From assembly GCA_048939465.1 (NCBI GenBank), contig JBHLPL010000007.1, positions 897 through 32,896 on the forward strand: a DNA stretch of 32,000 bases, read 5' to 3'. Source of the stretch: Promethearchaeota archaeon (GTDB lineage Archaea; Asgardarchaeota; Odinarchaeia; Odinarchaeales; JBHLKK01). A model generated the notes under the pieces. The model was not told the origin of the DNA, ran no database searches, and was given only the letters and a program-made list of their open reading frames with translations. Every line of letters begins with the position of its first letter. Within the stretch, counting starts at the first letter, position 1. The position numbers and the translations under genes are program-made. Shown here piece after piece: positions 1,794-27,430 of this stretch.

Positions 1794-2939
1794 TTAGCCT
1801 TTTAGTAGTCTTTTTGCAATAACTAGCCTCTGAATCTCAGATGTCCCTCCGTAAATGGATGTTATTAAGGAATCCCTCAAGAATCGTTCAACAGGAAATT
1901 CTCGTGTATATCCATAACCGCCGTGTATCTGGACTGCCATCCTGGCTGTCCTAACTGCGGTCTCTGAGGCGAAGAATTTTGCCATGGCCACCTCTTTGGT
2001 AAATTTCTTGTTTTGATCTTTCAGAACGGCAGCTCTGAGGGCAAGGAGACGTGCTGCTTCAATTTCTGTGGCTAGCTCTGCTAGTGTGAATTGGATATAT
2101 TGAAAATTGGATATAGTTTTTCCGAATTGCACTCTTTGTTTGGCGTATTCAATGGTTTTGTCTAAGGCTGCCTGCGCGATACCTACTGCTTGAGCGGCAA
2201 CACCCATTCTTACGTTATCAATACTCTTCATTGCTAGCTTGAATCCTTCTCCTTCTTCCCCGAGAAGGTTTTCCTTTGGCACCCTGCATTCTTCGAAGAC
2301 TAGTTCTGCAGTAGGCGACCCCCTGATTCCGAGTTTCTCTTCAAGAGATCCTACGGAAAATCCAGGAGTCCCTTTCTCAACAATGAATGCACTGATGCCC
2401 TTATGTGGTTTCTCTCCCTTTGACGTTCTTGCAAAAACAATGACCGTATCTGCTTCGCTTCCTTGACTGACAAACAGCTTGTTTCCAGATATGACGTATT
2501 CATTGCCATCCAAGGTTGCCTTGGTTTGAATTGCTGTAGGATCAGATCCGGCGTTGGCTTCGGTCAATGCAAAAACGCCTAGTTTTGCCCCTTGTGCGAG
2601 AGGTTTTAGAAATTTCTGTTTTTGGTCCTCTGTCCCAAACATGTTGAGTGGTTCACATACTAGGCTATTGTTTACCGACATAACAACGGAAACCGATGCG
2701 CTAACCTTCGATATCTCTTCTACAGCCAATAGGTAACTCACCGAGTCTGTGCCTGCGCCCCCATACTCGGGCGGCACAGTCATTCCCAGCAGATTTAATT
2801 GTCCCATTTTCTTGACGGCTTCTGCAGGATACATCTCTTCTTTGTCTATCTTGTCAGCTATGGGTGCTAGTTCTTTCTCCGCGAATTCCTTAACCATATT
2901 TTTTATCATTTCCTGTTCAGGAGTCAAACTAAAATCCAA
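1794..2939 (-). CDS. Acyl-CoA dehydrogenase family flavoprotein (SCAD-like scaffold, catalytic Glu apparently absent)
   Basis: Motifs FALTEANAGSD, GNKLFVSQG, KLGIRGSPT, RVQFGK, QIHGGYGY and IYGGTSEIQR. TTG start at 2939 is preceded by GGAGGT (2951-2946); the ORF-track start at 2984 is probably too long. Confidence 0.93.
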   Translation of the reverse strand: MDFSLTPEQEMIKNMVKEFAEKELAPIADKIDKEEMYPAEAVKKMGQLNLLGMTVPPEYGGAGTDSVSYLLAVEEISKVSASVSVVMSVNNSLVCEPLNMFGTEDQKQKFLKPLAQGAKLGVFALTEANAGSDPTAIQTKATLDGNEYVISGNKLFVSQGSEADTVIVFARTSKGEKPHKGISAFIVEKGTPGFSVGSLEEKLGIRGSPTAELVFEECRVPKENLLGEEGEGFKLAMKSIDNVRMGVAAQAVGIAQAALDKTIEYAKQRVQFGKTISNFQYIQFTLAELATEIEAARLLALRAAVLKDQNKKFTKEVAMAKFFASETAVRTARMAVQIHGGYGYTREFPVERFLRDSLITSIYGGTSEIQRLVIAKRLLKG

Positions 2940-3007
2940 CTCTAGACCTCCTTTAGGCTTGAGGCGGGAAGACTCTCCCAACACTTCCTTGTTCTTGAAT
3001 TGGAGAA

Positions 3008-3024
3008 CAGTTGTGTTCCAACTG
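3008..3024. promoter_or_regulatory. Palindromic candidate operator CAGTTG-N5-CAACTG (CAGTT-N7-AACTG)
   Basis: Perfect 6-bp inverted arms immediately downstream of the minus-strand TATA box of the acyl-CoA dehydrogenase gene. Confidence 0.5.
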
Positions 3025-3025
3025 A

Positions 3026-3040
3026 ATTATATATTTTTTT
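3026..3040 (-). promoter_or_regulatory. Archaeal promoter (A-rich BRE + TATA) for the acyl-CoA dehydrogenase gene
   Basis: Minus strand reads AAAAAAA-TATATAAT about 90 nt upstream of the start codon. Confidence 0.65.
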
Positions 3041-3146
3041 ACGGGTTATCCTTCTGCATTTATCTGTTCTGTGGAATCTCTTTTCAGGTTTGTGTCCCGT
3101 CTCCGGTAGTGAACGACCTGCTATCTTCATATTAATTACTCTTCTA

Positions 3147-3575
3147 TTACTCTCCCATGATTTGGACCATCAATCTTCTATTCCTGGGTCTTACATCTAA
3201 TTCAACGAAAACTATCTGTTGCCACGTTCCTAGAGTGAGTCTCTTGTCAACAAACGGAACAGTCAGACTAGGCCCAAGTATAGCTGCCCTACAGTGGCTA
3301 TGCCCATTTCCATCGTGCCATCTTAGCTCATGTTCGTACTGCATCCCCTTTGGGGAAATCCTCTCCAATATCGCTGGAAGATCTTTCAGAAGTCCGGGCT
3401 CGTATTCGATGGTTGTTACTGCACCTGTCGCTCCGGGCACAAAGACTGTGGCAATTCCTTTTGAAACACCAGACTGCGAGACTGTTTTCTGAACTCTGTC
3501 GGTAATGTCCACGATGTGGACCTCCCCGTCAGTTGAGAAATCTATTGTCTTTGCCTCAACTGTCAATATTATCAC
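3147..3575 (-). CDS. yjbQ: YjbQ/UPF0047 family protein (secondary thiamine-phosphate synthase-like)
   Basis: Motifs GATGAVTTIEYE, HDGNGHSH and LGTWQQIVFVELD..R.R. The GTG start overlaps the upstream stop (alternative TTG at 3566). Confidence 0.9.
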   Translation of the reverse strand: MIILTVEAKTIDFSTDGEVHIVDITDRVQKTVSQSGVSKGIATVFVPGATGAVTTIEYEPGLLKDLPAILERISPKGMQYEHELRWHDGNGHSHCRAAILGPSLTVPFVDKRLTLGTWQQIVFVELDVRPRNRRLMVQIMGE

Positions 3576-4339
3576 CTCTCCGATTCCCGAATTGTTTTAT
3601 ATAACCAGCTTGTTGCACTTCGGTATTTCTCCTGTAGGTCCTTTTCATTTTTGATGAAGTAAAGCTTCAGGAGCTTGCCGATCGTCTCTGGGGGCAATTC
3701 GTAGTGTACATAATGCATTTGGAAATCATAATGAATTGGATGGTGTTTGATCCGGAGAATCTCAACTAACGTGCCAAGCGTAAGGCGATAGTACAGGTCT
3801 AAGGCCTCGATATAATTGCCTCTATTGATCTCTTTCTGCACAAAACAATTAAACATCCTAATCCTCTCTTGAAGCTTTTTCAGCCTTTCATACATTCTCT
3901 TGTCAAAGGATTCCTTGTCGAAAGCAGGAAGCTGGACTTTCCCGGATTTGTTGAAATAAAAAGAAGCTTCGCCATGTACCTTGGGTTCAAGGAGCTTGTC
4001 AGGACTACTGAGTTTAAGAATTGCGAGGTCGATGATAAGATACTCGCTTGCATCTTCCAGTCTGTAGAAGGCCTGATATACGCCCTCCCACCCGGTCTGT
4101 GGTACATCGTACTTCTGTTTGATAGGTGACAGAGATTCTAATGCCCTCTCCACCGCAAGGAATGTATCATCAACTTTCTCATCATCAACAACTATGTAGA
4201 TATCCATATCAGACCACTCATCGACTCTCTTATGAGCAGCCGCACCCCCCTCCCAAAGGGCGTGAACATAATCAAGCGGTTCCAAGGATTTAACAAGCTC
4301 CTTGATTACTTCACCACGAGTTATTGTCTTTCTATTCAT
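3572..4339 (-). CDS. Pol-beta superfamily nucleotidyltransferase with a helical C-terminal domain (aminoglycoside/lincosamide NTase-like architecture)
   Basis: ALWEGGAAAHKRVDEWSDMDIYIV (GG...DxD) plus a third acidic residue in YLIIDL, followed by a helical C-terminal half. Confidence 0.75.
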   Translation of the reverse strand: MNRKTITRGEVIKELVKSLEPLDYVHALWEGGAAAHKRVDEWSDMDIYIVVDDEKVDDTFLAVERALESLSPIKQKYDVPQTGWEGVYQAFYRLEDASEYLIIDLAILKLSSPDKLLEPKVHGEASFYFNKSGKVQLPAFDKESFDKRMYERLKKLQERIRMFNCFVQKEINRGNYIEALDLYYRLTLGTLVEILRIKHHPIHYDFQMHYVHYELPPETIGKLLKLYFIKNEKDLQEKYRSATSWLYKTIRESER

Positions 4340-4407
4340 CAGTAGTGCACCTCTTAAACCATTAGATAGAAACCTTCATAAAGGATTGCCTATCACGGTA
4401 TAAGGAA

Positions 4408-4854
4408 TTGGGGAGTTTCGTGTCTGATGAAAGAAGCAGACCTCTTGGCGTAACTCTCATGGGAATCCTCACGCTTCTATCTGCAGTACTGTGGCTTATT
4501 ATTGGCGCTGGCCTAATCATGTTGCTTGGTGCTACTCTGATTCAAGTCCAACCAATACCTGATCTCCAACCAATGCCTGAATCTGACGCAGCAATGGGAC
4601 CTGTGTTGTTCCTTTGGGGCGTTTTCAATTCCGAGGTGGCATTTGGATTATTTAATATGGAAAGACGGGCATGGGTCTTGGCAGTAATGTCTACGTTAAC
4701 TGGGCTGGCTTTTTCAGCACTTGGAATTAGCATTTTTGCTACAACAATACAAAGCAGCCCTTATGCGTATCAATTGAAAGGAATTCTGATTGCCATCGGA
4801 ATGCTCCAACTACTGTACTTGCTTATTAGCCATGGCAATTTCAAGAAAGATTAA
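4408..4854 (+). CDS. Small integral membrane protein, about 4 TM helices, unknown function
   Basis: RPLGVTLMGIL N-terminal motif and four hydrophobic segments; fills the gap between minus-strand genes. Confidence 0.7.
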   Translation: MGSFVSDERSRPLGVTLMGILTLLSAVLWLIIGAGLIMLLGATLIQVQPIPDLQPMPESDAAMGPVLFLWGVFNSEVAFGLFNMERRAWVLAVMSTLTGLAFSALGISIFATTIQSSPYAYQLKGILIAIGMLQLLYLLISHGNFKKD

Positions 4855-4895
4855 TACTCTTCTCACAGGGCATATTCGGTGCGAAGTTCAACGGT

Positions 4896-5804
4896 CTATA
4901 GATCGAGCAATTCTCGGGCATTCTTTGTCAGGATCTGAACCTTTTCCTTGTTTGTTAAATAGGGAGAGCTTCTGATTTCGGCTATGATTGATTTTATGCT
5001 CACTTCGCCTAGTGCTGGGTAATCTGATCCAAACAGAACATGATCAAAACCTACTTTTTTCCTGATCTTCTCAGAGAAACTCCTTTTTGTAACCAAATAT
5101 GTGACTGCGGAGATGTCAAACCATACGTTATCATAGTCTTCTCCCAACCTCAGGGCCTCGTCAAGCCATATGCCGGGGTATCGCGCACTGTACGATCCCA
5201 TGTGAGCTAGAATTACTGGCACTTTCCTGAATCTTTTGATCATATACTCAATGTATTTTGGGTTTGCATCTTCCGAAAATCGCGGAAATTCCCAGATGTG
5301 TGGGTCACAACCCGAGTGCCACATGACGATTTTTCTCTTCCTCTCACAGAAACCAAAAACCTTTTTCATCTTCTTCTTGCTCTTCAAGGGACTGAAAAAC
5401 TGAAGTGTCGGTATGAGTTTGACCCCTCTGAGACCTAATCGGTCTACTTCCTTTATCTTTTCATCAATATACGGTTCGTCTTTAGACAAGTTCACAGATC
5501 CAAAGCCTAAGAATGTGTGAGGATACTTCATCATTAGATTTGCGACACGCTTGTTATCAATCCTTGAAATCTTAAGAAGATACCTCATGCCATCAATGAC
5601 TTGTGGACCCGCCCAAATGTAGAGGTCCAGCAGACGCTGAAGGACTCCTTCGTATATTTCTGGTCTATCTAGATCCTTCGCGTCCACATCTAGAGCAATC
5701 AAGACTGCGTATTCAATGGCCGCTTCCTTTAATTCAGATAGCATGCGATCCTCGCTTATGTACTTCAAGAAAGGATGTAGATGAAAATCTATGATCCCCT
5801 TCAA
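4896..5804 (-). CDS. Amidohydrolase superfamily protein (Amidohydro_2 type, metal-dependent TIM barrel)
   Basis: IDFHLH metal motif, MWHSG, ILAHMG, FDIS and LFGSDYP. Confidence 0.88.
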   Translation of the reverse strand: MKGIIDFHLHPFLKYISEDRMLSELKEAAIEYAVLIALDVDAKDLDRPEIYEGVLQRLLDLYIWAGPQVIDGMRYLLKISRIDNKRVANLMMKYPHTFLGFGSVNLSKDEPYIDEKIKEVDRLGLRGVKLIPTLQFFSPLKSKKKMKKVFGFCERKRKIVMWHSGCDPHIWEFPRFSEDANPKYIEYMIKRFRKVPVILAHMGSYSARYPGIWLDEALRLGEDYDNVWFDISAVTYLVTKRSFSEKIRKKVGFDHVLFGSDYPALGEVSIKSIIAEIRSSPYLTNKEKVQILTKNARELLDL

Positions 5805-5817
5805 GACCTATGATCCC

Positions 5818-7023
5818 TCATCTGTAAGGAAGAAATTCTCTTCCTAGTATCTCTCTTGCGATTATTAGTCTCATGATGTTTTGGGTTCCTTCAGCACCTA
5901 TGGAGTAAGATCTTACGCCTCTCAGTCCCATTTCGAGTGAACATTCCTTGGTATATGCAAAAGCTCCAACCCATGACATTACATCGTTGATGATATCAAA
6001 TCCCATGAGTGGTGCTTCTAATTTAGTCATGGCTGCCAGCTTCGAAACATCGTGATGAGTAAATCTCTTCTCTTGGTACATTCTATCTATCGTCCAAGCA
6101 GCCTTGTAGCATAACAGTCTATTGGCCTCTAGTCGCGCAGAATTATCAGCCAACTCAAACTGAATCCCCTCGAATTTTCCAATAGGGCGACCGAACGCCT
6201 TTCTTTGCTTGATGTACTCTATGCCATACTCTATGGCACCATCTGCGGCTCCAACACATGTGGCTCCGATCAGGACCCTGGCACACGAAAAGCCCTCCAT
6301 AGCGTAGTAAAATCCCCTATTCATTTCACCGACGATATAATGCTCTGGTAACCTTACATCGTCCATAGTAAATCCGCCAGTGGAAATCCCCATCCTTCCC
6401 ATATCCTCGAACAGTGTTGTGGTTATCCCCGGAGTGTTTTTCAGGGGCACAAAACAGAAAGTCATACCTCTGTGCTCAAGTTTGGGTTCTGTCTTAGCAA
6501 GAGTAAGATGTCCTCCACCGTTCTTCTCGGCTTCTCTGACTCCGCTTATATAGATCTTTTCTCCATTAATTACGCAGTTCTCCCCCTCTTTCTTCATCAA
6601 TGTTTTTCCTGCGCCCAGTATGTCCGACCCTCCCCCTGGCTCCGTAACTGCAATGCCTATGAATGCTTCTCCTTTGGTTACTCTAGGAAGAACCTCTTCT
6701 TTAGCCTGCTCCGTGCCATACTTGTCGAAGATATAACCCCAGGCCGCTTCCACTAAAAAAAGCACTGGTATTGCTACACTGATATCTGCTCGGCCCAGCT
6801 CTTCGGCGGCGATCGAAGCAAGTGTAAAATCTGCTCCTGCGCCTCCATATTCCGGCGAAACCGTCATGGCCAAGAGATTCAACCTTGCCATACCCTTTAT
6901 AATCTCCTCAGGAATTTCACCTTTAGTGTCCATTTCTCTTACTCTGGGTGTGATCTCCTTTCGGCAGAATTCTCTCACAGTCCTTCTAAACAATTCTTGT
7001 TCTTCGGTGAAGCCGAAATCCAT
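5818..7023 (-). CDS. Acyl-CoA dehydrogenase
   Basis: IAVTEPGGGSD, INGEKIYISG, RKAFGRPIG and IGAEGTQNIMR (catalytic Glu retained). GAGGTGA RBS upstream. Confidence 0.93.
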   Translation of the reverse strand: MDFGFTEEQELFRRTVREFCRKEITPRVREMDTKGEIPEEIIKGMARLNLLAMTVSPEYGGAGADFTLASIAAEELGRADISVAIPVLFLVEAAWGYIFDKYGTEQAKEEVLPRVTKGEAFIGIAVTEPGGGSDILGAGKTLMKKEGENCVINGEKIYISGVREAEKNGGGHLTLAKTEPKLEHRGMTFCFVPLKNTPGITTTLFEDMGRMGISTGGFTMDDVRLPEHYIVGEMNRGFYYAMEGFSCARVLIGATCVGAADGAIEYGIEYIKQRKAFGRPIGKFEGIQFELADNSARLEANRLLCYKAAWTIDRMYQEKRFTHHDVSKLAAMTKLEAPLMGFDIINDVMSWVGAFAYTKECSLEMGLRGVRSYSIGAEGTQNIMRLIIAREILGREFLPYR

Positions 7024-7165
7024 TTTATCACCTCAAATATGAAATCTATAAAGAGCAGTTACATAAATAATCCTTCCTAAAAACATTTGAATAGGTAGCA
7101 ATTCATAGTTTCATCGTGCCCATAGATGGAACTGAAAACTGAGAGAGATTGAGAAGGAATTAGCA

Positions 7166-8095
7166 ATGGCCAGGTTGATAAAAAAGCTGAAAACCAGTGA
7201 GCTGGACTTAATTCAACAATGCACCCTGGGCCCATCAAATAAACCTATAGGGGAGGTCAGTCTGGGAGAAGAACTAATCATTGAAACCTGTGACCGTTAC
7301 GGAGACGTCGTTGGTCGAGAGCACCCGTTGGATGTCATTCATAAGAAGAAACTTCCAATATATGAGAATCCAGTAACCGGTCCTTTGTATATAGTAGGAG
7401 CTGAGCCCGGAGACACCCTTATTGTGGAAATATTGGATATTGAGTTGCCTGATAGGGGAACCGTAACCCTCAAACCCGGTTGTGGAGCTCTTCAACCATG
7501 GCTTGAACAACAACCTACAATAACCAAATCCGTGAGAATCCAGAATGGCAAAATCTATTATGAAACTAATCACGGGAAAATCGTCGAGCTAGCCGCCAAG
7601 CCTTTTATAGGGACAATAGGCGTGGCACCGGCCGTCGAGGCAATTTCAACATTCACGCCTGAAAAGCATGGCGGAAATATGGATTGTGAAGATGTGTGCG
7701 CAGGGAGCAAATTATTCCTGCCGGTGTCAGTTGAAGGTGCACTGTTCGGTCTGGGGGACATTCATGCTTTGCAGGGAGATGGTGAGATTTGTGGCTATGC
7801 GGTGGAAGTCACAGCAAAAGTCAGACTCAGGCTAGGTATCCAAAAGAATAAGACTATCGAGTGGCCACGTATAGAGACAGCTGATGCAATAGCAACGGTT
7901 TGCAGCAGCAAGCCTTTAGAGGACGCTGCTCGTTTGGCATACGTAGAATTGATTAAGTGGTTAGAGGAAGATTACGGATTTGACCGATACGACGCATACA
8001 TGTTCCTCAGCATTGCTGCAAGAGCTCGCATAGCTCAGATTGTGGACCCGTTATATACGGTGGAAGCAATCTTGCCAAAGAGATATTTGACATAA
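7166..8095 (+). CDS. Acetamidase/formamidase family protein
   Basis: NPVTGPLYIVGAEPGDTL, PFIGTIGVAP, HGGNMDC and GDIHALQGDGEICG motifs. Confidence 0.9.
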   Translation: MARLIKKLKTSELDLIQQCTLGPSNKPIGEVSLGEELIIETCDRYGDVVGREHPLDVIHKKKLPIYENPVTGPLYIVGAEPGDTLIVEILDIELPDRGTVTLKPGCGALQPWLEQQPTITKSVRIQNGKIYYETNHGKIVELAAKPFIGTIGVAPAVEAISTFTPEKHGGNMDCEDVCAGSKLFLPVSVEGALFGLGDIHALQGDGEICGYAVEVTAKVRLRLGIQKNKTIEWPRIETADAIATVCSSKPLEDAARLAYVELIKWLEEDYGFDRYDAYMFLSIAARARIAQIVDPLYTVEAILPKRYLT

Positions 8096-8174
8096 GTGCT
8101 CAGATTCTGTTGATCCGACTCCGTTCTTTGGCTCGCTGGATCGATATAAAGCTGTTAGAGGGGGGATTCATTAG

Positions 8175-8618
8175 ATGAAGAATGTAATAATCAGAAAGGC
8201 TAGTAAGAGTGACATATCCGATCTACTTACGCTAGCTGAAGAGTTCATGCCCAAAGAGGCCTCCATAGAATCCAGGACGGCTGCCCTAAACGACGCGCTC
8301 GCCAGCCCGCGTTATGAGATTTTTGTAGCAGACTCGGATGGACAGATTATGGGCTTCATTGATCATTGGATCACTTCGGATTTCACTCATGGAGGAAAAA
8401 CAAGTTTTATACATAATCTCTACATTGGCCCCAATTTCAGGAGAAAGGGAATAGGGTCAAAACTGCTCCAGAGAATAATAGAAAGCTCTATGAAAAAAGA
8501 CGTTGTCGAGATACATGTGGCCACTGAGTTTGAAAACAGACCTGCCATAGCATTATACAAGGGTCACGGCTTGACAAACGAAGCACTTCAACTCGAGAAG
8601 GAACTATCGCGACGATGA
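8175..8618 (+). CDS. GNAT family N-acetyltransferase
   Basis: LYIGPNFRRKGIGSKLL acetyl-CoA binding motif A and N..AIALY..HG motif B. GATATAAA TATA-like element upstream. Confidence 0.9.
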   Translation: MKNVIIRKASKSDISDLLTLAEEFMPKEASIESRTAALNDALASPRYEIFVADSDGQIMGFIDHWITSDFTHGGKTSFIHNLYIGPNFRRKGIGSKLLQRIIESSMKKDVVEIHVATEFENRPAIALYKGHGLTNEALQLEKELSRR

Positions 8619-9141: not shown

Positions 9142-10074
9142 CTAAGGCTTAGGAATTGCCAAATCCCTTGGTCCCTTACCGGAGAGCTTGACTTCTGGAC
9201 AATTCTTCTCAACGATATCCCTTATTATTTCTGCATATTTCACCTTCTCTCGAGCCATAAAAGCAAGCCAATCTGGGCTAACCCAAGGTTTGTAAGAATT
9301 ACCCACTGTGGGGCCAGGTTCAATTTTGAAATATACGGGGGCACATGTCCTTGCAATTTCTGGAGTATCATAGAATCTGACAAACCCACCGAAGCTGTCG
9401 AATAGATAGACATGAACATCTATCGGCATGCTGACTGAAGCTCTGATGGCGGCAAGTTGAGGTAGTGACAAGTCTCCCAGTGGATTGAATGTTGATGCAC
9501 CAAGTATTTCAAGGACTTTTCCTCCTGCTGGGTTACCGTGACCTGCGAAAATAGAAACCTTCAGAACCACATCCTTTGGGATTTCCCCAATTTTCTTCAA
9601 TTCGTTCAAGACCCACAAGAGTCCTTCATCGATGACAAGAAAACCTCTAAATCCAAACTCGATTGTTCTTTTAATATCTGCAATCACCTGTGCCAGCTGC
9701 TCTGATCCCCGGAACCGCATCCCTGACAAGGCCCCCTCAGGAGTAACGATTTGTCTTCCGACATCCCACGGGGATCTCGGTCCGGGAGTGATAATTACCT
9801 CCATTTTGGCGTCCGCAGCCGTTTTTGCAAACGCTTGAAGTTCCTCATCTGAAAGAAGTGTCGAACCCATAACCGTTGAGATTAACCTGTGAACAGGAAC
9901 ATCTCGCTTCTCGGCTTCATCGATCAAGGCCTCCAAAGTTGAAGGTCGTTCAACACCACTAATCTCCATTCGGTAATGGCATCCGTCTGGAAAACGTTTT
10001 TCTGAGGACGGAAGATCGTACCTGTCTCTTCCTGGGATTCCAATCTTTTCCAGCGCTTTTCTAACATTCTCCAT
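9142..10074 (-). CDS. TIM-barrel protein of the uncharacterised family often auto-annotated as U32 family peptidase
   Basis: PGRDRYDLPSSEKRFPDG..YRMEISGVE, VIITPGPRSPWDVG, GFRGFLVIDEGLL and PIDVHV. ATG at 10074 follows a GGAGGGG RBS; the ORF-track start at 10161 is likely too long. Family assignment is from recall. Confidence 0.6.
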   Translation of the reverse strand: MENVRKALEKIGIPGRDRYDLPSSEKRFPDGCHYRMEISGVERPSTLEALIDEAEKRDVPVHRLISTVMGSTLLSDEELQAFAKTAADAKMEVIITPGPRSPWDVGRQIVTPEGALSGMRFRGSEQLAQVIADIKRTIEFGFRGFLVIDEGLLWVLNELKKIGEIPKDVVLKVSIFAGHGNPAGGKVLEILGASTFNPLGDLSLPQLAAIRASVSMPIDVHVYLFDSFGGFVRFYDTPEIARTCAPVYFKIEPGPTVGNSYKPWVSPDWLAFMAREKVKYAEIIRDIVEKNCPEVKLSGKGPRDLAIPKP

Positions 10075-10150
10075 TTGCAAGTTATCCCCTCCTACTAAGT
10101 GATAAGCATTATTAATTAGAATGAAGGTATTAATTCTTTTCTGAATTTGA

Positions 10151-10164
10151 TTCATGAACATGAA
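10151..10164. promoter_or_regulatory. Palindrome TTCATG-AA-CATGAA in the divergent promoter region; candidate operator
   Basis: Perfect 6-bp arms between the U32-like gene and the DapA-Fae operon. Confidence 0.35.
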
Positions 10165-10206
10165 GAACTACGCTTGGTGAGGTATGAAGCCCTGAGGGTG
10201 TAAACT

Positions 10207-11640
10207 ATGAAGGAATTCAGACTCAAAGGTATTATGCCGGCGCTTGTTACGCCATTCACCAGAACAGGTGAGGTTGATCCAGGAGCATTCAAAAGACTGA
10301 TTCGGTTTGTGATCGAAGAAGGAGTTACAGGTATCCTGGCTGGTGGTACGACAGGTGAGTTCATAAATCTCTCGTTAGAGGAAAGGAAGGCCACAATCAA
10401 TCTTGCTGTAGACGAATCGAATGGACGTGTTCCTGTCATCGCCGGAACAGGTCATAGTTCCACAAGACAAACAATTGAGCTAAGCAATTACGCCTACGAT
10501 GCTGGAGCTGATGCAGGATTGGTCGTAGCTCCCTACTATCTAGGAGCCGCAGATAAGAGCCTTTATGAGCATTTCTATCGAGTTGCTGAGGCCGTTGAAC
10601 TTCCTCTGATTCTTTATAACATCCCCCAGTGTGCCGGTAATTATATTCCGCGTGAGGTCGTCGAGGATCTGGCCGCCATAGACAACATAGTTGGAATGAA
10701 GGATAGTAGTGGCAACTTCCCCTACTTGATGAGCCTTCTTGAAAAAGTCGGGGACAAGATCAGTATAGTCGTTGGATATGATGAGATTGTTTTTCCTGCT
10801 TTGGTAGCTGGAGCACAAGGTGCCATCCTGGCCAGCGCCAATATTATTCCCGACATCTGGCTAAAGATATATGATGCCGTGCAAAGCAACCATCTAGCTG
10901 AAGCTCGAAAGCTTCAGATGGAGATTCAAAAACTAACCAGGATAATTACCCGTCATGGTGGGGCACTCCCCGTCAAATCTGCTTTAAAAATGATGAATCA
11001 CAAAGTGGGCAAAACCAGGATGCCTATTGTCAGCGGAGGTTCTCTAACCTGGGAAGTCAGAGAAGAAATGAGGTTGGAGCTTGAGAAACTAGGCAAGATT
11101 AGAGCTGCGATGAAAAGGATTGAAAAAGTGGCAGAGCCCGTTAAGGAGCGTTTTAGGGACCTCGGTATAACGGTCGGTGACATTTCATCGCAGAGTCTTA
11201 AGATAGGAGAGGGTTCGGCCGGTGATGGTGCCGAATTCGTTGAAGCAAGCATCGTTGCAGGATCATCTGAAGGAGTTGTTGGAGAAGGATATGCCACTGC
11301 GTTAACTTGCCCAAGACCCGGTTATGAAGCCTTGACTGTTATTCTGGAGCCAAACCTGATGGTGAGGCCTCCAACAATAATCGTTCCGGAAGTCGAGATT
11401 AAAGACATGAGACAGGCAAGTATGATCTATGGTCCCGTACAGGCTGCTGCCGGAATGGCGATACTGGAGAATCTTAGGAATAGGATAATCCCAGAAGATG
11501 CAATTAGCAAGAATGTAATGATCCTAAAGATTTTTGCTCATCCTAGGGCCATTGATCGTTATAGTCTTTACTGGAACTGCTACGAGGCGATAGGAAAAGC
11601 TGTCAAGAGTGCTTGGCAAGGAGGAGAAAAAAATGAGTAA
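10207..11640 (+). CDS. DapA/NAL-family class I aldolase fused to a C-terminal formaldehyde-activating enzyme (Fae)-like domain, copy A (Fae His lost)
   Basis: N-terminal: GTTGEF, PYY, LYNIP and GMKDSSG (Schiff-base Lys165). C-terminal from about residue 331: KIGEG..GDGAE, VILEPNL..RPPTIIVP, Q..MIYGPVQAA, FAHP and Y..CYEAIGKAV, which align by eye to Fae. Confidence 0.85.
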   Translation: MKEFRLKGIMPALVTPFTRTGEVDPGAFKRLIRFVIEEGVTGILAGGTTGEFINLSLEERKATINLAVDESNGRVPVIAGTGHSSTRQTIELSNYAYDAGADAGLVVAPYYLGAADKSLYEHFYRVAEAVELPLILYNIPQCAGNYIPREVVEDLAAIDNIVGMKDSSGNFPYLMSLLEKVGDKISIVVGYDEIVFPALVAGAQGAILASANIIPDIWLKIYDAVQSNHLAEARKLQMEIQKLTRIITRHGGALPVKSALKMMNHKVGKTRMPIVSGGSLTWEVREEMRLELEKLGKIRAAMKRIEKVAEPVKERFRDLGITVGDISSQSLKIGEGSAGDGAEFVEASIVAGSSEGVVGEGYATALTCPRPGYEALTVILEPNLMVRPPTIIVPEVEIKDMRQASMIYGPVQAAAGMAILENLRNRIIPEDAISKNVMILKIFAHPRAIDRYSLYWNCYEAIGKAVKSAWQGGEKNE

Positions 11641-13111
11641 GAGAAAAGGCGGCTGGCTAAAGGGAGTCATGCCCGCTCTCATAACCCCGTTTGATAAGAA
11701 AGGAGAAATCAAGGAGGATTCGTTAAGAACTCTTGTGAACTACACTCTTGAATGTGGGGTTACCGGCGTTGTTCCGGTAGGTACCACGGGAGAATTCGTC
11801 AACCTATCAATCGAAGAACGAGAAAGGGTCTACGATATCGTTATTGATCAAGTGAATGGCAAAGTTCCTGTGATAATTGGTTCGGGTGATAGCGGTACCA
11901 GAGAGGTAATTCAGCTAACAAGGTACGGAAAGGATGCTGGGGCTGACGCAGCGCTTGTTGTCACTCCATACTTTTTGAAGCCAACCTACAAGGAGATTTT
12001 TGAGCATTTCAAGAAAGTCTCTGAAGAAGTAGACTTCCCGATAGTACTGTATAATATTCCTGCCTGTACTGATGTTCATATCGGTTGGTGGACGGTCGAG
12101 GGACTCGCTGATCTTGAGAACATAATTGGTATCAAGGATAGTAGCGGAAACATGTCTTTCATCATGACTCTGATGGAGAAGGTAAAGAAGAAGATTGCTG
12201 TAATGTGCGGCTGGGATGAGATCGGCTTTCCTGCTTTGGCTGCCGGAGCAGATGGTCTAATTTTGGCAAGCGCGAATCTGATTCCGGACATCTGGATCGA
12301 TCTCTATAACGCAGTTAAGGGCGAGGATTATGAGAAGGCCCGAAATCTACAGCTGAAAATACAGAAACTTGTAAGAATAGTCTGTAGACAAGGAGCAACT
12401 GAAGCTGTTAAGACAGGTCTGCAAATGATGGGTTTCGACGTAGGTTTTTCGCGTAAGCCAGTCGTAACGGGAGATATATTCCGCTATGAAGACCGCGAGG
12501 AATTGCGTCTGCAATTGGAAACCTTAAACAAAATAAGATCCAAGAGAATATCAATCTGTATTGACTCAAAAATTACTGAGAGTATGGTTGCTGCTATTCC
12601 TGAAACACCTGATACAATTCAAGATTTCGCTTTGAAAGTCGGTGAAGCTTTGGCAGGCCCCCCTTCGTTTGAAGTTGCCCATATTGACCTTCTTATCGGG
12701 AAAAAAGATGGACCCTTAAAAAAGGCTTGCGATAAGGCATTGTCCAATAAAATAATGGGACATGAACCGAAAGTTGTGCTTCAAAGACCGCTTACTCTTC
12801 TGATACCGACCGTCTCGGTCAGAACAGAGAAGCAGGCAGCACACGTTTATGAGTTTGCCTCAAAAGGAGTAGCAAGAGCTGTAGAAGCAAGCGTGAAGGA
12901 TGGTATAGTTCCTGAAGAAATCTTGGATGAAATACTTCTAATTGCAAATGCTTTCGTGCATCCAACAGCTGTCAATGAGAAGAGGATATATTTTAACAAT
13001 TACAAAGCAATGAGACATGCGATAAGGAAGGCCCTTGAAGAACGGCCGACAATTGATGAGCTTCTCCGCCTAGGTGAAACTGCCCGACACCCCTTCAGAT
13101 ACACTCCCTAG
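11633..13111 (+). CDS. DapA/NAL-family class I aldolase fused to a C-terminal Fae domain, copy B (Fae His retained)
   Basis: ATG at 11633 (GGAGGAG RBS) overlaps the stop of copy A. Motifs GTTGEF, PYF, LYNIP and GIKDSSG (Lys168). C-terminal KVGEAL..EVAHIDLLIGKKDGP, FVHP, NNYKAMRHAIRKAL and ARHPF match Fae. Confidence 0.88.
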   Translation: MSKRKGGWLKGVMPALITPFDKKGEIKEDSLRTLVNYTLECGVTGVVPVGTTGEFVNLSIEERERVYDIVIDQVNGKVPVIIGSGDSGTREVIQLTRYGKDAGADAALVVTPYFLKPTYKEIFEHFKKVSEEVDFPIVLYNIPACTDVHIGWWTVEGLADLENIIGIKDSSGNMSFIMTLMEKVKKKIAVMCGWDEIGFPALAAGADGLILASANLIPDIWIDLYNAVKGEDYEKARNLQLKIQKLVRIVCRQGATEAVKTGLQMMGFDVGFSRKPVVTGDIFRYEDREELRLQLETLNKIRSKRISICIDSKITESMVAAIPETPDTIQDFALKVGEALAGPPSFEVAHIDLLIGKKDGPLKKACDKALSNKIMGHEPKVVLQRPLTLLIPTVSVRTEKQAAHVYEFASKGVARAVEASVKDGIVPEEILDEILLIANAFVHPTAVNEKRIYFNNYKAMRHAIRKALEERPTIDELLRLGETARHPFRYTP

Positions 13112-13192: not shown

Positions 13193-14533
13193 TTGGATAA
13201 GAAAATAGTTGGCATTGCAGTCGCTGCAGTCATAGTGATAGGTGTCGGAGTTTCTGTCTGGTATTTCGTCCTGTTGCCCATGAATCCTCCGGAGAAGTGG
13301 GGTCTTGTTCTTGCCGCATCAAATGACTTCCATGGTGACAAAGATATGAGCATCCCGAATTCAGGTTTTGAGTTAGATCCATATGATCCATCTCCTTGGG
13401 AACCCAATGTATCGAGCGGTACATCTTGGAATATAGATACCACTGAAAGCCATAGTGGTCAGAATTCGTTGAAAATTAACTCATCTAATCCTGCTGGTGA
13501 TTCTGAGGTTTACCTACAGGCTCCTATAATGATAACACCGGGTCTTGAGTATATTCTCCGTGGCTGGATAAAAACTAGCAACGTTATCGGCTTCGCTACT
13601 ATAGGACTATGGTGGCTAAACAGCGGAGCCCCTCCATCACCAGTCAACATTGTTTCCAAGGTTTATTCAACACCTGGACTGAACGGAACAAACGACTGGA
13701 CACTGCTTACACTCTCTGCAGTCGCACCACCTACTGCTACCTTTGTCACTCCTATTCTGAGACTGAAAGGCACCGGAGTTGCTTGGTTTGATGACATTTC
13801 ATTCTTTGGGGTGTTTCAAACTCTTGTAACCGATTCAGATGCTTATCCTTCTCAAGCTCTTCAGGCTTACTATATACTCAAAGGCAATGGCTATGACGAT
13901 AATCACATAATTCTAATGCTCTACCACACAAACGATAGTGTCATAGACATATATGGCACCGGAGCAAACGATCTTACGAATGCTACAGTCGATGTGGAAA
14001 ATGATAATGTGAATAAAAGCAGATTCTCTTCCGAAGTCTTGAGTTTGGCATCCTTGGCTGATATCAACGATGATGTATTGATATATGTTGTGGCACATGG
14101 CTCTCGCACTGGAGACATAGCATCGATTCATTTCGAGTCAGATGGCAGTTCTATGAACGAGACGGAGTTCTCAACTCTTATAAACCAATTTAATTGCAGC
14201 AGGATGACCATTCTGGTTGATGGTTGCTACACTGGCAACTTCATAAGTTCTCTGAACGCTCCAGGTGAAAGTAGGATATCAATTTCAGCTGCAAGTAATA
14301 TCACGGCATGGTACTGGACTTCTTCAAATGCTAGCCACTATGCTGGCTCGTGGTTCTTCCATCCATTCTGGGAGAGACTCAAAACTGGAGTTAGCATAGG
14401 CTCTGCGCATCAATATGCGATTGGAACTATTCCGACGACAGTTGGACCATTTGCAAACACCACTGTGGATGATATTCAAAGCCCGATTCTGCAGGACAAC
14501 GCACTTGATGCGAACACCTACACATTCCTCTGA
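13193..14533 (+). CDS. N-terminally membrane-anchored clan CD cysteine peptidase (caspase/legumain C13-like) with an inserted CBM4/9-like beta-sandwich
   Basis: TM anchor at residues ~5-27; KWGLVLAAS strand; CBM-like segment (NSGFE...W...DTTESHSGQNSLKI...PGLEYILRGWIKT...WFDDISF); catalytic dyad VVAHG (His302) and LVDGCYTG (Cys345). Confidence 0.75.
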   Translation: MDKKIVGIAVAAVIVIGVGVSVWYFVLLPMNPPEKWGLVLAASNDFHGDKDMSIPNSGFELDPYDPSPWEPNVSSGTSWNIDTTESHSGQNSLKINSSNPAGDSEVYLQAPIMITPGLEYILRGWIKTSNVIGFATIGLWWLNSGAPPSPVNIVSKVYSTPGLNGTNDWTLLTLSAVAPPTATFVTPILRLKGTGVAWFDDISFFGVFQTLVTDSDAYPSQALQAYYILKGNGYDDNHIILMLYHTNDSVIDIYGTGANDLTNATVDVENDNVNKSRFSSEVLSLASLADINDDVLIYVVAHGSRTGDIASIHFESDGSSMNETEFSTLINQFNCSRMTILVDGCYTGNFISSLNAPGESRISISAASNITAWYWTSSNASHYAGSWFFHPFWERLKTGVSIGSAHQYAIGTIPTTVGPFANTTVDDIQSPILQDNALDANTYTFL

Positions 14534-15288: not shown

Positions 15289-15323
15289 CTCAAACATAGT
15301 TCACCTTTTATTAGGCGACGGTG

Positions 15324-18170
15324 ATGGGGAAGGACTACATATTTGTTAAGGGAGCAAAAGTTCATAACCTCAAAAACATCGACGTGAGAATCCCTAGGAA
15401 CAATCTGGTTGCCATAACTGGCGTAAGCGGAAGTGGCAAAAGCTCGCTGGCATTCGATACCATATATGCTGAAGGTCAGCGTAGATACGTTGAGTCTCTT
15501 TCTGCTTACGCAAGGCAATTCCTTGAGCAAATGGAACGTCCCGATGTAGAGTACATTGAGGGCCTTTCTCCTGCTATAGCCATAGATCAAAAAGCTGTAA
15601 GCAAGAATCCACGTTCAACCGTGGGGACTGTTACCGAGATTTACGATTATCTGCGTTTACTTTTTTCAAACATTGGAATTCCCCACTGCTGGGTGTGTGG
15701 AAGAGAAATATCGCCTCAAAGTCCACAGGAAATAGTCGGCCAAATAATGGCTCTGGGAAAAGACAGAATTCTGATACTATCTCCTGTGGTAAGAGGAAAA
15801 AAAGGGCATTATCAAACCCTCTTTAGCGATCTGCAGAAGGAAGGATTTGTTAGAGTCCGGGTTGATGGGAGTGTATTCACTCTAGGCAAAGATGAGATTG
15901 AACTTGAAAGATACAAGAAGCACACTATTGAAATCGTGGTTGATAGAATAGCATTGGGTCAGGAAAGCTCCCAGCTGAGAAGCAGGATTGCAGACTCAGT
16001 GGAAACCGCTCTCCGATACTCGGAAGGTTTGGTAGGTACAGTCTCCACGGATTCTGGTAAAGAACAGCTGTTCAGCACCGCAATGGCGTGTTCAAGCTGT
16101 GGAGTTAGCTTGGAGAAACTAACACCCCGTATGTTTTCATTCAACTCTCCCTATGGAGCTTGTCGAACATGTGACGGTCTTGGAGTAATAATGAAGGTCG
16201 ATCCAAATCTAATTGTTCCAGACAAGACAATCTCTGTTTCTGAAGGGGCGGTATTGCCGCTAAGGAATATGAACAGCTATTACTACAAGATGCTTAGGTT
16301 AGTCGCAGAACATTATCGTTTCAGTCTTGATATTCCCTTTAAAGATATACCAGAAGAATGTCAAAAAATCGTCTTTTACGGCAGCAAGGATCCTATCAAA
16401 TTCACCATAAGAAGCACCTACGGGACAAGTGAGTGGAGCACATACAGGCCCTACGAAGGAATAGTAAACAACCTTGAAAGAAGATATCGCCAGACTAAAT
16501 CCTCCTACATTAGGTCTGAAATACAAAGGTACATGGCAAACCTACCGTGTCCAGAATGTGGTGGACATAGACTCAAACCAGAAAGCTTGGCAGTAACCAT
16601 AGGCGACAGAAACATTGCTAGGGTTTCTGAAATGTCAATAAAAGATGCCTACAAGTTCTTCTCTGAGCTGAGATTAACCGAAAGAGAGTCAATAATTGCG
16701 AAGAGGATACTAAGAGAGATTAAGGCTCGATTAGAGTTTTTGATTAATGTTGGCTTGGACTACCTTACAATCGACAGGTCCGCCTCGACATTGGCGGGCG
16801 GAGAAGCTCAGAGAATCAGGCTTGCAACCCAAGTAGGTTCCGGTCTCATGGGAGTCATCTATATACTTGATGAACCTAGTATCGGTCTTCATCAGAGGGA
16901 CATAGCCCGTCTTCTAGCAACGCTGAAGAGGTTGCGAGATCTTGGAAACACAGTGATCGTCGTTGAACACGATGAGTCCACCATAAGATCTGCCGATTAC
17001 ATAATTGATATGGGTCCCGGCGCCGGAGACTATGGAGGACGAATCGTCACGGCTGGAAAACTTGATAAGATTATTCGCAATGGGAATTCACTGACTACCA
17101 AGTACTTGAAGGAAGAAATCAAGATTCCTGTTCCCCCAACCCGACGAAAGAGCAAGTCTCATCTCACAATCAAAGGTGCAAGAGAGCATAATCTGAAGAA
17201 TATCGACGTTAAAATCCCTCTTGGGGTTCTTGTGTGTATTACGGGGGTTTCCGGAAGCGGCAAAAGCACTCTCATAAATGAGATCTTGTACAGGGGCCTG
17301 GCAAGGATCTTTTACAGATCAGGGTTAGCTCCCGGCGTTCACGACGGACTCAAAGGAGTCGAAAACATCGATAAGGTTGTTATTATTGATCAGTCTCCAA
17401 TCGGAAGAACTCCCCGTTCTAATCTAGCTACCTACACAGGAGCTTGGACTCCTATAAGAGAACTCTTCGCAAACACAACTGAGGCAAAAGGAAGAGGATA
17501 TTTCCCAGGGAGATTCAGCTTCAACGTCAGGGGCGGTAGATGCGGCGCCTGTGCGGGTCAGGGCATGATTAGGATTGAGATGCACTTCCTGCCGGACATC
17601 TACGTCACCTGTGACGTATGCAAGGGGAAGAGATTCAATCAAGAGACATTGGAGGTAACTTACAAAGGAAAGAACATAGCCGAAGTTCTTGATATGAGTG
17701 TCGACGCAGCTTTTGGATTCTTCAAGAATATACCTACCGTCAAAAGAGTCTTGCAGACCGTAAGGGACGTAGGTCTTGGCTATGTCAAACTCGGTCAGAC
17801 TGCACCTACGTTATCGGGTGGAGAAGCTCAGAGAATAAAACTGAGTCGCGAACTGAGCAAAAGGGAGACCGGCAACACCCTCTACATCTTGGACGAACCG
17901 ACCACCGGTCTTCATTTCGCGGACATTCACAGATTACTCGATGTTCTTAGCCGTCTGGTCGACGGGGGAAACACAGTTTTGATAATTGAGCATAACATGG
18001 AAGTGATCAAGAGCGCAGATTACATAATTGATCTAGGGCCCGAAGGAGGAGACGAAGGAGGGTGGGTAGTGGCTGAAGGAACACCAGAAGAGATAGCAAA
18101 ACGCCCCGATTCTTACACAGGTCAGTATCTGAGACGAATCCTGGACGCGGGAACAGACCGTCCTAATTAA
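15324..18170 (+). CDS. uvrA: Excinuclease ABC subunit A (start GTG 15321 or ATG 15324)
   Basis: [12 protein letters not shown], two Walker A motifs ([18 protein letters not shown]), [12 protein letters not shown], zinc fingers, [12 protein letters not shown] / [11 protein letters not shown] and LDEP motifs. Confidence 0.99.
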
Positions 18171-18194
18171 ACCTTGATTACGGTTAAAGGGTGT

Positions 18195-18220
18195 TCTGTT
18201 AGAACATATGTTCTAACAGA
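18195..18220. promoter_or_regulatory. Perfect 26-bp palindrome with a GAAC-ATAT-GTTC (SOS/Cheo box-like) core upstream of uvrC
   Basis: TCTGTTAGAACAT|ATGTTCTAACAGA, extendable by GGTG/CACC with a 1-nt bulge. Lies about 25 nt downstream of TAATTAAA (18164-18171). Confidence 0.7.
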
Positions 18221-18287
18221 CACCGAAGTCGAGAGATGCGGTATCGATAGAAGGATGAAGATCAAAAATTGGGTTGGAGGACTACAC

Positions 18288-20123
18288 TTGACCCTCAGAG
18301 ATGAAATCAACAAGACTTTTCCTAACAAGCCAGGAGTGTATTTCTTGAAAGACTCCAAGGGAGACATCATCTACATAGGGAAAGCTAAGGCTCTCAAGAA
18401 GCGAGTGCTTCAACATCTCGGGAGCAGAGATCCCAAAGAGAGCAATATTCGTAATAACACGACAGATGTTGATTTCATCACCACGGATACTGAAGCTGAG
18501 GCTCTGGGTCTTGAGATCGAGATGATAAAGAAGAATAGACCACGATTCAATGTCTTTTTCAAAGATGATAAGTCCTACCCATATGTCAGGGTGACTCGGG
18601 AAGAAGAATATCCCCGCTTATTCATAGCACGAAAGCTCAAGACCAAGAAAGATAAATCAGAGTACATCGGGCCTTATAGCGGTGTCCCAGCTCTCAAAAG
18701 AACGCTGAACTTCCTAAGAAAGAGCTTTCCAGTAGCCAGCTGCAAATCAAAGATTATCGTAGGTAAAAGGAAACGTCCTTGTCTTGAGTACAACATCAAA
18801 AGATGCCTTGCACCATGTGTCAAACCCGTTAACACGGCGGAATATCAAAAATTGGTAAATCAGTTTACGTTCTTTTTAGAAGGCCGAGACAAGCAACTGA
18901 TTGGCGAATTAAAAAGAGAAATGAGTAACGCATCAGACAAGCTAGAGTTTGAGCGAGCTGCTCTTCTGAGGGATAGACTGGAAGCTGTTGAAAGGACGAT
19001 TGAGAGACGCATGATTTCTTTGGATATCGGAGACCACGATTTCCTTGGACTGTCAAAAGAAGGTGGTTTAGCATGTTTGACTTTGCTTTCGGTAAGAGAG
19101 GGAAGAATGACAGAGCAAAATAGTTTTGTACTGAGGGTGCCAGAAGGAAGCTCAAAAGAAGATGTTTTGGAAAGCTTCATCGAGCAATATTACTATCAGT
19201 CCACACACATTCCTGCTGCAGTGATCATTCCCTTCAAGATCAAAAGCGATGAGGCCCTTGAGGCATTGCTCTCCTCTCTCCGTGGCAATATTGTGAGAAT
19301 CAATAAACCTAAGGAAGACATTGAACTGAAATTGCAGCGGTCAGTAACTGAAAACGCGGAGACAACTCTGAAACGAACGATCTTAAGGCAGCAACTCGAA
19401 GCTCAAAAGGCCCAGCTGATCGTAGAGGACCTAAAAAAGCATCTACCAGTCGGACTGAAGTTGGACGAGCTGGAGGTAGTTGAAGGATTTGACGTTTCTG
19501 CCTTGATGGGGGCTAATGCTGTTGGATCCTGTGTTGTCTTTAAAGATTGCAAACCCAAGAAAAGCGATTATCGCCGATTCAAAATAAAATGGATTAAAGG
19601 ACAAGATGATTTTGCTATGATGGAAGAGATTGTTGAACGCAGGCTGGAGCAGCTTCTCAACGATGGCGAGAAGCTGCCAGATCTGATTCTCGTGGATGGT
19701 GGAATAGGTCAGCTGAATGCCGCGCTCAAGGCAGAGCAGAGAACCGCTGTAAGAACTCCTACTATTGCTTTGGCCAAGGAACATGAGGAAATCTATGTTC
19801 CGGGGTTTAGAAGTCCAGTTAAACTACCTGAAGATTCACCTGCTCTGCTGTTCCTGCGTAGAGTTAGAGACGAGGCTCATAGGTTCGCTGTATCCTACCA
19901 TCGCAAGTTAAGAAAAGACAAGATGGTAAGATCTTCCCTGGATGAGATCCCCGGAGTTGGACCTAAGACAAGGAATAAGCTTCTGAAGCATTTCGGGAGT
20001 GTTGAGCGTATAGCTGTGCTAAATGTTGAAGAGCTACGTTCTATTTCTATAGGTAAGAAACTCGCTGAAAGGATTTTAAAACACCTGCGCAACCGCTATC
20101 CCAAAAGGCCTGGAAATGAATAA
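18288..20123 (+). CDS. uvrC: Excinuclease ABC subunit C
   Basis: GIY-YIG domain (PGVYFLKD..IIYIGKA), Cys cluster, FERAALLRD UVR domain, EGFDVS, PDLILVDGG..QL, RDEAHRFA and a C-terminal HhH. TTG at 18288 follows GGAGG; the ORF-track start at 18174 would read through the palindrome. Confidence 0.98.
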   Translation: MTLRDEINKTFPNKPGVYFLKDSKGDIIYIGKAKALKKRVLQHLGSRDPKESNIRNNTTDVDFITTDTEAEALGLEIEMIKKNRPRFNVFFKDDKSYPYVRVTREEEYPRLFIARKLKTKKDKSEYIGPYSGVPALKRTLNFLRKSFPVASCKSKIIVGKRKRPCLEYNIKRCLAPCVKPVNTAEYQKLVNQFTFFLEGRDKQLIGELKREMSNASDKLEFERAALLRDRLEAVERTIERRMISLDIGDHDFLGLSKEGGLACLTLLSVREGRMTEQNSFVLRVPEGSSKEDVLESFIEQYYYQSTHIPAAVIIPFKIKSDEALEALLSSLRGNIVRINKPKEDIELKLQRSVTENAETTLKRTILRQQLEAQKAQLIVEDLKKHLPVGLKLDELEVVEGFDVSALMGANAVGSCVVFKDCKPKKSDYRRFKIKWIKGQDDFAMMEEIVERRLEQLLNDGEKLPDLILVDGGIGQLNAALKAEQRTAVRTPTIALAKEHEEIYVPGFRSPVKLPEDSPALLFLRRVRDEAHRFAVSYHRKLRKDKMVRSSLDEIPGVGPKTRNKLLKHFGSVERIAVLNVEELRSISIGKKLAERILKHLRNRYPKRPGNE

Positions 20124-27416: not shown

Positions 27417-27430
27417 TCCTCATCTCCTCA

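Follow-up and report, generated by a model that had tools for sequence, protein, structure and literature searches.

Two overlapping genes of an Asgard archaeon encode aldolase–Fae fusion proteins with complementary losses in their Fae domains

Two overlapping genes, here called A and B, lie in a 32,000-nucleotide (nt) stretch of contig JBHLPL010000007.1 from a Promethearchaeota archaeon (assembly GCA_048939465.1, contig positions 897 to 32,896), referred to below as the window. Each encodes a class I aldolase of the DHDPS family that is fused to a C-terminal domain of the formaldehyde-activating enzyme (Fae), and the two Fae domains have lost complementary sets of motifs. We propose, with a probability of about 0.4, that A and B together form one uncharacterised two-subunit enzyme that would transfer a one-carbon (C1) unit reversibly between a pterin and C3 of pyruvate, with 4-hydroxy-2-oxobutanoate as the compound made or cleaved.

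Overall organization of the gene pair

Gene A (positions 10207–11640 of the window) encodes a protein of 477 amino acids (aa), and gene B (11633–13111), read from its ATG, one of 492 aa; both open reading frames (ORFs) lie on the forward strand. The aldolase domains, defined by matches to the Pfam DHDPS profile and by their motifs, are encoded at approximately 10222–11034 in A and 11657–12469 in B. The Fae domains, defined by the Pfam Fae profile and by alignment, follow at approximately 11203–11619 in A, where the domain is degenerate, and 12638–13096 in B, where the motif set is partial. The end of A and the start of B share 8 nt (ATGAGTAA, 11633–11640). A purine-rich AGGAGGA located 7 nt 5′ of the ATG provides B with a ribosome-binding site of its own, and the sequence GAGGGTG is found 5′ of the ATG of A. 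The overlap, taken together with the AGGAGGA element, suggests that translation of the two genes is coupled. An earlier note on this DNA had described two coupled paralogues with an 8-nt overlap, each composed of an aldolase and a C-terminal Fae domain, and both the ORFs and the Pfam matches confirm this layout. The two proteins are 42% identical when aligned from end to end, and the AlphaFold2 model of B has a predicted local distance difference test (pLDDT) value of 86.6. Metagenome runs of sediment and mangrove samples, produced by several studies, contain the same DNA; no RNA dataset is listed as holding it.

The Fae domains have lost complementary motifs

The Pfam Fae profile (PF08714, cut-off 27 bits) matches residues 333–471 of A over profile positions 1–139 of 159 (E = 5.1e-33, 114.8 bits), and residues 336–488 of B over positions 1–158 (E = 2.4e-37, 128.8 bits). 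With the TIGR03126 model, B scores 142.1, above the cut-off of 118.05, and A scores 116.8, just below it. The Fae-Hps model NF009833 returned 90 bits for A and 108 bits for B against a cut-off of 274, as only the Fae part matches. Alignment to the solved Fae structure from Methylorubrum extorquens (PDB code 1Y5Y) extends over 156 residues for B (E = 1e-19) and 143 residues for A (E = 9e-16), and the domains were also aligned with the host's own canonical Fae-Hps. The C-terminal domains described in the earlier note thus both score as Fae, but that of A is not intact, as it lacks the His/Asp pair and about 20 C-terminal residues.

B retains the motifs EVAHIDLLIG, FVHP and NNYKAM as well as the C-terminal ARHPF; its PNL loop is deleted (six residues), and the FGPAQ or GPxQ motif is replaced by YEFAS. 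A retains GYEALTVILEPNLMVRP, the ILEPNLxVRP loop, together with YGPVQ. At the site of EVAHxD, however, A has EFVEAS, with neither His nor Asp, and it ends some 20 residues short, before the C-terminal RHPF tail. The complete motif set is present in one polypeptide in the host Fae-Hps and in the single-gene forms of the fusion described below, but in neither A nor B.

A census of these motifs was carried out for 25 A, 23 paired B and 40 single-gene sequences from 80 loci of GTDB species representatives. Among the paired B sequences, the His and the Asp are each present in 100%, the tail is present, and the loop is deleted in more than 90%. Among the A sequences, the loop, the Gly-Pro and the Gln are essentially invariant; the His is found in 20% and is mostly replaced by Gln (48%), and the tail is deleted in about 96% or more. 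All of the Fae motifs are retained in the single-gene forms, which come from Bathyarchaeia and from one Asgard genome (G032). The complementary degeneration is therefore a property of the whole family and not peculiar to one genome. That the Fae motifs are conserved in this complementary manner across three phyla speaks for a genuine binding or catalytic site and not a scaffold.

The pattern fits a view of A and B as complementary halves of one Fae site rather than two equivalent enzymes. In the work on 1Y5Y and 1Y60, tetrahydromethanopterin (H4MPT) is said to bind between adjacent subunits of Fae. A site placed between subunits, with its two faces now split between A and B, would make a heteromer obligatory, by way of duplication. 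It is thus probable, judging from the motifs, that A and B form an obligate heteromer with a composite Fae site. Prediction of the complex of A with B gave a score of 0.33 against a mark of 0.34, which we count neither for nor against this arrangement.

The aldolase domains

Pfam DHDPS matches residues 6–276 of A (E = 2.3e-75) and residues 9–279 of B (E = 1e-75). The class I aldolase motifs noted earlier are intact in both proteins: GTTGE, the Tyr of YNIP and the Schiff-base Lys of KDSSG are all in place, and they are 100% conserved across 103 family members. DHDPS enzymes lend one Tyr to the neighbouring subunit. This residue is Phe in 64% of A sequences and Tyr in the A protein of the window.

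The two proteins differ from DapA at the substrate site. In DapA, an Arg (R138 in Escherichia coli) binds aspartate semialdehyde. In an alignment with the solved DHDPS 3PUD, the position of this Arg, in the PGRTG motif, is occupied by Cys in both A (PQCAG) and B (PACTD). Family-wide, this position holds Cys in 82% of the paired B sequences and in 97% of the single-gene ones, with Val or Thr in most A sequences. Both proteins nevertheless score above the cut-off of the dapA model TIGR00674 (217.2 bits for A and 226.2 bits for B against 206.15), and it is because these scores just exceed the cut-off that relatives carry DapA-type public names; the names in use are “4-hydroxy-tetrahydrodipicolinate synthase” and “formaldehyde-activating enzyme”. 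Scores with the models for other DHDPS-family aldolases lie far below the cut-offs, with 156–164 bits against 382 for nanA and 127–131 against 390 for Arch_KDGaldase, and the HpaI-type model TIGR02313 gives about 205 against 397.

The host genome is a metagenome-assembled genome (MAG) of 1.96 Mb in 152 contigs with 91% completeness, so that absences from it are not proof. No other DHDPS gene was found in it, and neither was a separate canonical dapA, for which the earlier note had proposed a check. DapB (PF05173), DapF (PF01678), Asd (PF02774) and Hom were likewise not found in this genome. The nearest other family of the same order has a plain DapA of 296 aa, Fae-Hps and Hom, and no fusion, and in related Asgard genomes that possess DapA it is a separate gene of about 296 aa. 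Taken together, the motifs and the genomic setting make it very likely that A and B are not DapA.

Distribution and phylogeny

The tandem pair is not confined to Asgard archaea but is also found in Thermoplasmata, Bathyarchaeia and Chloroflexota. Of the 201 Asgard genomes sampled, about 95 carry the fusion, as do 35 of 121 genomes sampled from one Chloroflexota class. Mapping of the spread and of the gene neighbours had been suggested together with the initial description of the pair, and it has now yielded these four lineages and a survey of neighbours over the 80 loci. No paper on a DHDPS–Fae architecture was found in the literature searched, and the earlier note likewise knew of no characterised enzyme with it.

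A FastTree phylogeny resolved three clades, corresponding to A, paired B and single forms. In the A clade and the paired-B clade the taxa branch in the same order, and such mirrored topologies are expected if both genes were co-inherited. In both clades the Chloroflexota sequences are nested within those of Thermoplasmata, and this nesting suggests that the whole pair was transferred into the bacteria.

Some loci depart from the layout of the window. At one Chloroflexota locus, a 64-aa Cys-rich ORF (L005:9489–9683; Pfam DUF6485, nine Cys) lies between A and B, and several further Chloroflexota loci have a gap of 0.3–1.6 kb at the A/B junction; in the window, no such gene separates A from B. 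Two Asgard genomes of family f16 (G029 and G039) carry gene X, the neighbour of the pair described below, and their sole DHDPS-like ORF, of about 300 aa, stands alone. This ORF scores 223–241 bits with a profile of the fusion, compared to about 150 bits for ordinary DapA, and possibly represents the aldolase subunit in unfused form.

Markers of C1 metabolism

The host genome encodes a canonical Fae-Hps (601 bits with NF009833), and its gene adjoins that of Mch. Among the 201 Asgard genomes, each family that bears the fusion has Mch, and no fusion was found in the Mch-negative families f4, f14, f17, f20 and f21 (50 sampled genomes) or in five smaller ones. This distribution supports a link between the fusion and C1 metabolism of the H4MPT type in Asgard archaea. 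The earlier note had also proposed looking for fae-hps and for the genes of the H4MPT pathway. The former is thus present, and the result for the latter is mixed: Mch accompanies Fae-Hps, but RFAP synthase was not found.

A proposed two-subunit C1-transferring aldolase

The chemistry put forward in the earlier note, in which a pyruvate enamine takes up or sets free formaldehyde exchanged with a pterin at the neighbouring Fae site, is still the most economical. Each subunit would be a class I aldolase barrel of the pyruvate type, equipped with GTTGE, the Tyr and the Schiff-base Lys. To a shared Fae site, B would contribute the His/Asp face, FVHP, NNYKAM and the C-terminal tail, and A would contribute the PNL loop and the YGPxQ face. 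Pairing of the two domains would rebuild the inter-subunit site that identical subunits would form in the single-gene relatives and in canonical Fae. A C1 unit at the formaldehyde level would then move reversibly between a reduced pterin, presumably H4MPT in the host archaeon, and the enamine of enzyme-bound pyruvate, so that 4-hydroxy-2-oxobutanoate is made or cleaved and free formaldehyde is never released. What we infer in this scheme is that a heteromer is formed, which substrate and carrier it uses, and in which direction the reaction runs.

Several points weigh against this proposal. Fae is a homopentamer that converts formaldehyde and H4MPT to methylene-H4MPT, and an odd-numbered ring of Fae domains cannot alternate A and B. 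RFAP synthase, which catalyses the committed step of H4MPT synthesis, was searched for without success in the host genome (91% complete). In five Chloroflexota that bear the pair, neither Mch nor RFAP synthase scored above cut-off, although their A and B proteins are 54–56% identical to the archaeal ones. H4MPT is therefore not a universal partner; the carrier would be either flexible or other than a methanopterin, and in these bacteria the Fae domain might either accept tetrahydrofolate or need no pterin. Finally, no aminotransferase, kinase or other user of 4-hydroxy-2-oxobutanoate recurs in the neighbourhood over the census of 80 loci. The recurring neighbours other than A, B and X were all lineage-specific housekeeping genes, namely those for a tRNA m1A methyltransferase-like protein, kinases and peptidases.

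A more far-reaching version of the proposal takes A and B as a natural C1-assimilating or C1-releasing aldolase that joins formaldehyde from methylene-H4MPT to pyruvate to give 4-hydroxy-2-oxobutanoate, and hence as a carboxylation-free link from the C1 pool of the Wood–Ljungdahl pathway to C4 metabolism in Asgard archaea, Bathyarchaeia and Thermoplasmata. We consider this version unlikely.

Gene X and the divergent intergenic region

Gene X (9142–10074, reverse strand) is transcribed divergently from A and encodes 310 aa when read from MENVRK; its ORF is readable up to position 10161. Searches against Pfam and NCBIfam returned no match at an E-value of 0.01. X shares 68–72% identity with fusion-adjoining genes on a chromosome from Thermoplasmata, in a MAG from Chloroflexota and in the Asgard genome G032, and it is more conserved than either A or B. 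It lies within 6 kb of the fusion at 15 of 24 paired loci and at three single loci. Among the 201 Asgard genomes, X occurs in 29, which belong to families f1, f8, f12, f13, f16 and f18 and include one genome of f19. The fusion-carrying families f6 (0 of 43 genomes) and f9 (0 of 41) yielded no X, which is therefore not obligatory for the fusion.

The AlphaFold model of X is a (β/α)8 barrel with a pLDDT of 95. Structure searches (Foldseek against the PDB and AFDB, and the VIA wide search) returned only generic barrels, on which X is assigned to no family, among them CutC (Z = 15.3), the U32 protein Mk0906 (Z = 14.4), and class II aldolases and Rubisco-like proteins (Z = 13–14), with many further barrels at Z = 12–14. 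The nearest Atlas clusters have PF01136 in 23–55% of their members. X has no match to PF01136, the profile of peptidase U32 and UbiU/UbiV. An assignment as an iron–sulphur protein of the UbiU/V type was considered and rejected, since an alignment of 33 homologues shows neither a conserved His nor any Cys in its invariant or nearly invariant columns.

More distant homologues of X (34–39% identity) are found beside IlvD/Edd and enolase-type sugar-acid dehydratases and a plain DHDPS-family gene. One overlaps a 2-hydroxyacid dehydrogenase gene, with aldehyde dehydrogenases nearby, and another adjoins a ComB-like phosphatase. By analogy with these contexts, the substrate of X is probably a small 2-oxo, 2-hydroxy or enol acid.

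The intergenic region between X and A (10075–10206, 132 nt) may serve as a shared promoter or operator. It contains an inverted repeat, TTCATGAACATGAA, at positions 10151–10164, which falls inside the longer reading of the X ORF and could be an operator for a unit composed of X and the A–B pair.

Other genes of the window

Directly 3′ of B lies a gene for a membrane-anchored, legumain-like C13 peptidase (13193–14533), and further downstream one for an 1155-aa protein with PPC and C25 (gingipain-like) domains (28464–31931). These two proteins would fit an extracellular, protein-degrading lifestyle. Genes for bacterial-type uvrA (949 aa) and uvrC (649 aa) are arranged in tandem at 15321–20123, with no uvrB adjacent to them. 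The archaeal repair gene Nre is located at 24158–25420; its product matches, at 85% identity, a protein from a MAG labelled Hodarchaeota, followed by proteins of other Asgard lineages. At 26649–28411, a lipoate-protein ligase gene (LplA-B catalytic domain) adjoins one for a radical SAM protein. A lipoate ligase gene is also found near the fusion at a Bathyarchaeia locus (L007:13005–13808), which may be coincidence. Upstream of X, the region 1794–8618 carries genes for two acyl-CoA dehydrogenases, an Amidohydro_2 protein, a UPF0047 protein, a formamidase/acetamidase-family protein (7166–8095) and a GNAT acetyltransferase. In other genomes this cluster showed no association with A and B.

Discussion

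Four other explanations of the pair have to be weighed against a pterin-linked enzyme acting on pyruvate. The first is that the aldolase has as its substrate a larger 2-keto-3-deoxy (sugar) acid, or a different aldehyde, and that the Fae-like domain does not depend on a pterin but is an oligomerisation scaffold, a scavenger or sensor of formaldehyde or another aldehyde, or a binder of some other nucleophile. The pair-bearing Chloroflexota without H4MPT markers speak for it. So do the genes that keep company with X homologues, namely the sugar-acid cluster with IlvD/Edd, enolase-type dehydratases and a plain DHDPS-family gene, and the 2-hydroxyacid and aldehyde dehydrogenases. An aldehyde:ferredoxin oxidoreductase gene near the fusion at a Chloroflexota locus, and genes for a glycerate 2-kinase-like protein and ApgM near the fusion in the Asgard genome G032, point the same way. 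These neighbours, however, are not conserved across lineages. The complementary conservation of catalytic-type Fae motifs across three phyla, and the confinement of the fusion to Mch-positive families in Asgard archaea, likewise argue against such a role, which we regard as rather unlikely.

A hydroxymethyltransferase resembling PanB would share the chemical logic of the proposed enzyme, with the C1 unit of the methylene-pterin passed on to 2-oxoisovalerate (giving ketopantoate), 2-oxobutanoate or hydroxypyruvate. The host has a canonical PanB (314 bits), so that a further enzyme for making ketopantoate would be superfluous. Pyruvate is the characteristic substrate of the DHDPS family, and the motifs that bind it (GTTGE, Tyr and Lys) are unchanged in A and B. 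An acceptor other than pyruvate thus appears improbable.

The third explanation holds that the pair supplies homoserine, with 4-hydroxy-2-oxobutanoate, formed from methylene-pterin and pyruvate, being converted to homoserine in place of the route through Asd and Hom. To examine it, Hom, ThrC, ThrB and ThrB2 were searched for in the 201 Asgard, the 121 Chloroflexota and eight other archaeal genomes. Parts of the pattern are as it would predict. Hom and Asd are present in 14 of 14 control genomes but were not found in the host, which nevertheless has a ThrC-like gene above the TIGR00260 cut-off of 167 (218.6 bits by hmmscan, 219.8 in the genome search). Hom is found in about 13 of 95 fusion-positive Asgard genomes compared to about 61 of 106 fusion-negative ones, within family f9 in 7 of 27 genomes with the fusion and 10 of 14 without it, and in none of eight fusion-bearing Bathyarchaeia and Thermoplasmata genomes, six of them at chromosome level. 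The same eight genomes, however, lack ThrC above cut-off, and Hom is present in 26 of the 35 fusion-positive Chloroflexota. Homoserine kinase of either type was not found in the host or in the fusion-positive, Hom-negative Asgard families, and the iPGM type scored above cut-off only in Hom-positive genomes; GHMP-type ThrB was detected in 15 of the 201 Asgard genomes, a rarity that leaves the search for it uninformative. The negative association of Hom with the fusion is real in archaea, but the distribution fits better with a general loss of the aspartate-family pathway in auxotrophic, peptide-scavenging lineages than with its replacement, and a function in homoserine supply seems very doubtful.

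Two observations on these gene families are recorded here in their own right. A 471-aa threonine-synthase-like gene of the host (C83, L095:1345–2757) scores 411 bits with NF004170, for which the cut-off is 421, and in related Asgard genomes such a long ThrC-like form occurs as a second copy beside canonical ThrC. The ApgM-like gene of G032 was considered as a homoserine kinase and set aside, as it is a phosphoglycerate mutase by score.

That A and B are genuine DapA enzymes with an accessory C-terminal domain, as in the public annotation, is hardly credible: both exceed the TIGR00674 cut-off (217 and 226 against 206 bits) and are the sole DHDPS-family genes of the genome, but Cys takes the place of the Arg for aspartate semialdehyde in the two proteins, searches of the genome yielded no DapB, DapF or Asd, and DapA of the Asgard relatives is a separate gene of about 296 aa.

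The proposed C1-transferring enzyme resembles several known systems without coinciding with any. As in Fae-Hps, the Fae domain is joined to a barrel of the aldolase type, which would make or release formaldehyde, and a formaldehyde-handling C–C lyase would be coupled to a pterin carrier. The order of the domains is reversed, however, with the aldolase N-terminal in A and B; the partner is a class I Schiff-base barrel of the DHDPS family and not the OMP-decarboxylase-like Hps barrel; the Fae domains are individually incomplete and distributed over two paralogues; and the substrate would be a 2-oxo acid instead of ribulose 5-phosphate. Compared with M. extorquens Fae (1Y5Y and 1Y60), B keeps EVAHIDL and A keeps the PNL loop and an FGPAQ-like motif, but neither has the whole set or stands alone, and some hosts (Chloroflexota) lack H4MPT markers. 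DapA and other DHDPS-family aldolases, such as NAL, KDG aldolase and YagE/YjhH, share the fold and the GTTGE, Tyr and Lys motifs with A and B, which also score above the cut-off of the dapA hidden Markov model, and differ in that A and B have Cys for the substrate Arg, a C-terminal Fae domain and no diaminopimelate pathway found in the genome. The reaction itself, from pyruvate and formaldehyde to 4-hydroxy-2-oxobutanoate, is known as a promiscuous aldolase activity that is regarded as non-native, and it is carried out by E. coli RhmA in the homoserine cycle (PMC8879981). RhmA is a metal-dependent class II enzyme that uses free formaldehyde in an engineered pathway, whereas A and B would be a natural class I enzyme with a C1-carrier domain.

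The fusion family is abundant in widespread, uncultured sediment lineages of Asgard archaea, Bathyarchaeia, Thermoplasmata and Anaerolineae. The database names derived from DapA and Fae do not fit it, with the consequence that metabolic reconstructions credit these organisms with a step of the lysine pathway that they probably lack and overlook the real function of the proteins. With one active site decaying in complementary parts in two fused paralogues, the pair offers a clear case of subfunctionalisation, by which a heteromer would be enforced, and one Fae site split over such paralogues would, if the proposal is correct, be a new way of building an enzyme of this kind. Coupling of the pterin C1 pool to pyruvate would then add a new node to the one-carbon metabolism of anaerobes. 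A reaction that has so far been known only in the engineered homoserine cycle would gain a natural equivalent, and synthetic methylotrophy a ready-made natural catalyst for a step that it currently borrows from promiscuous enzymes.

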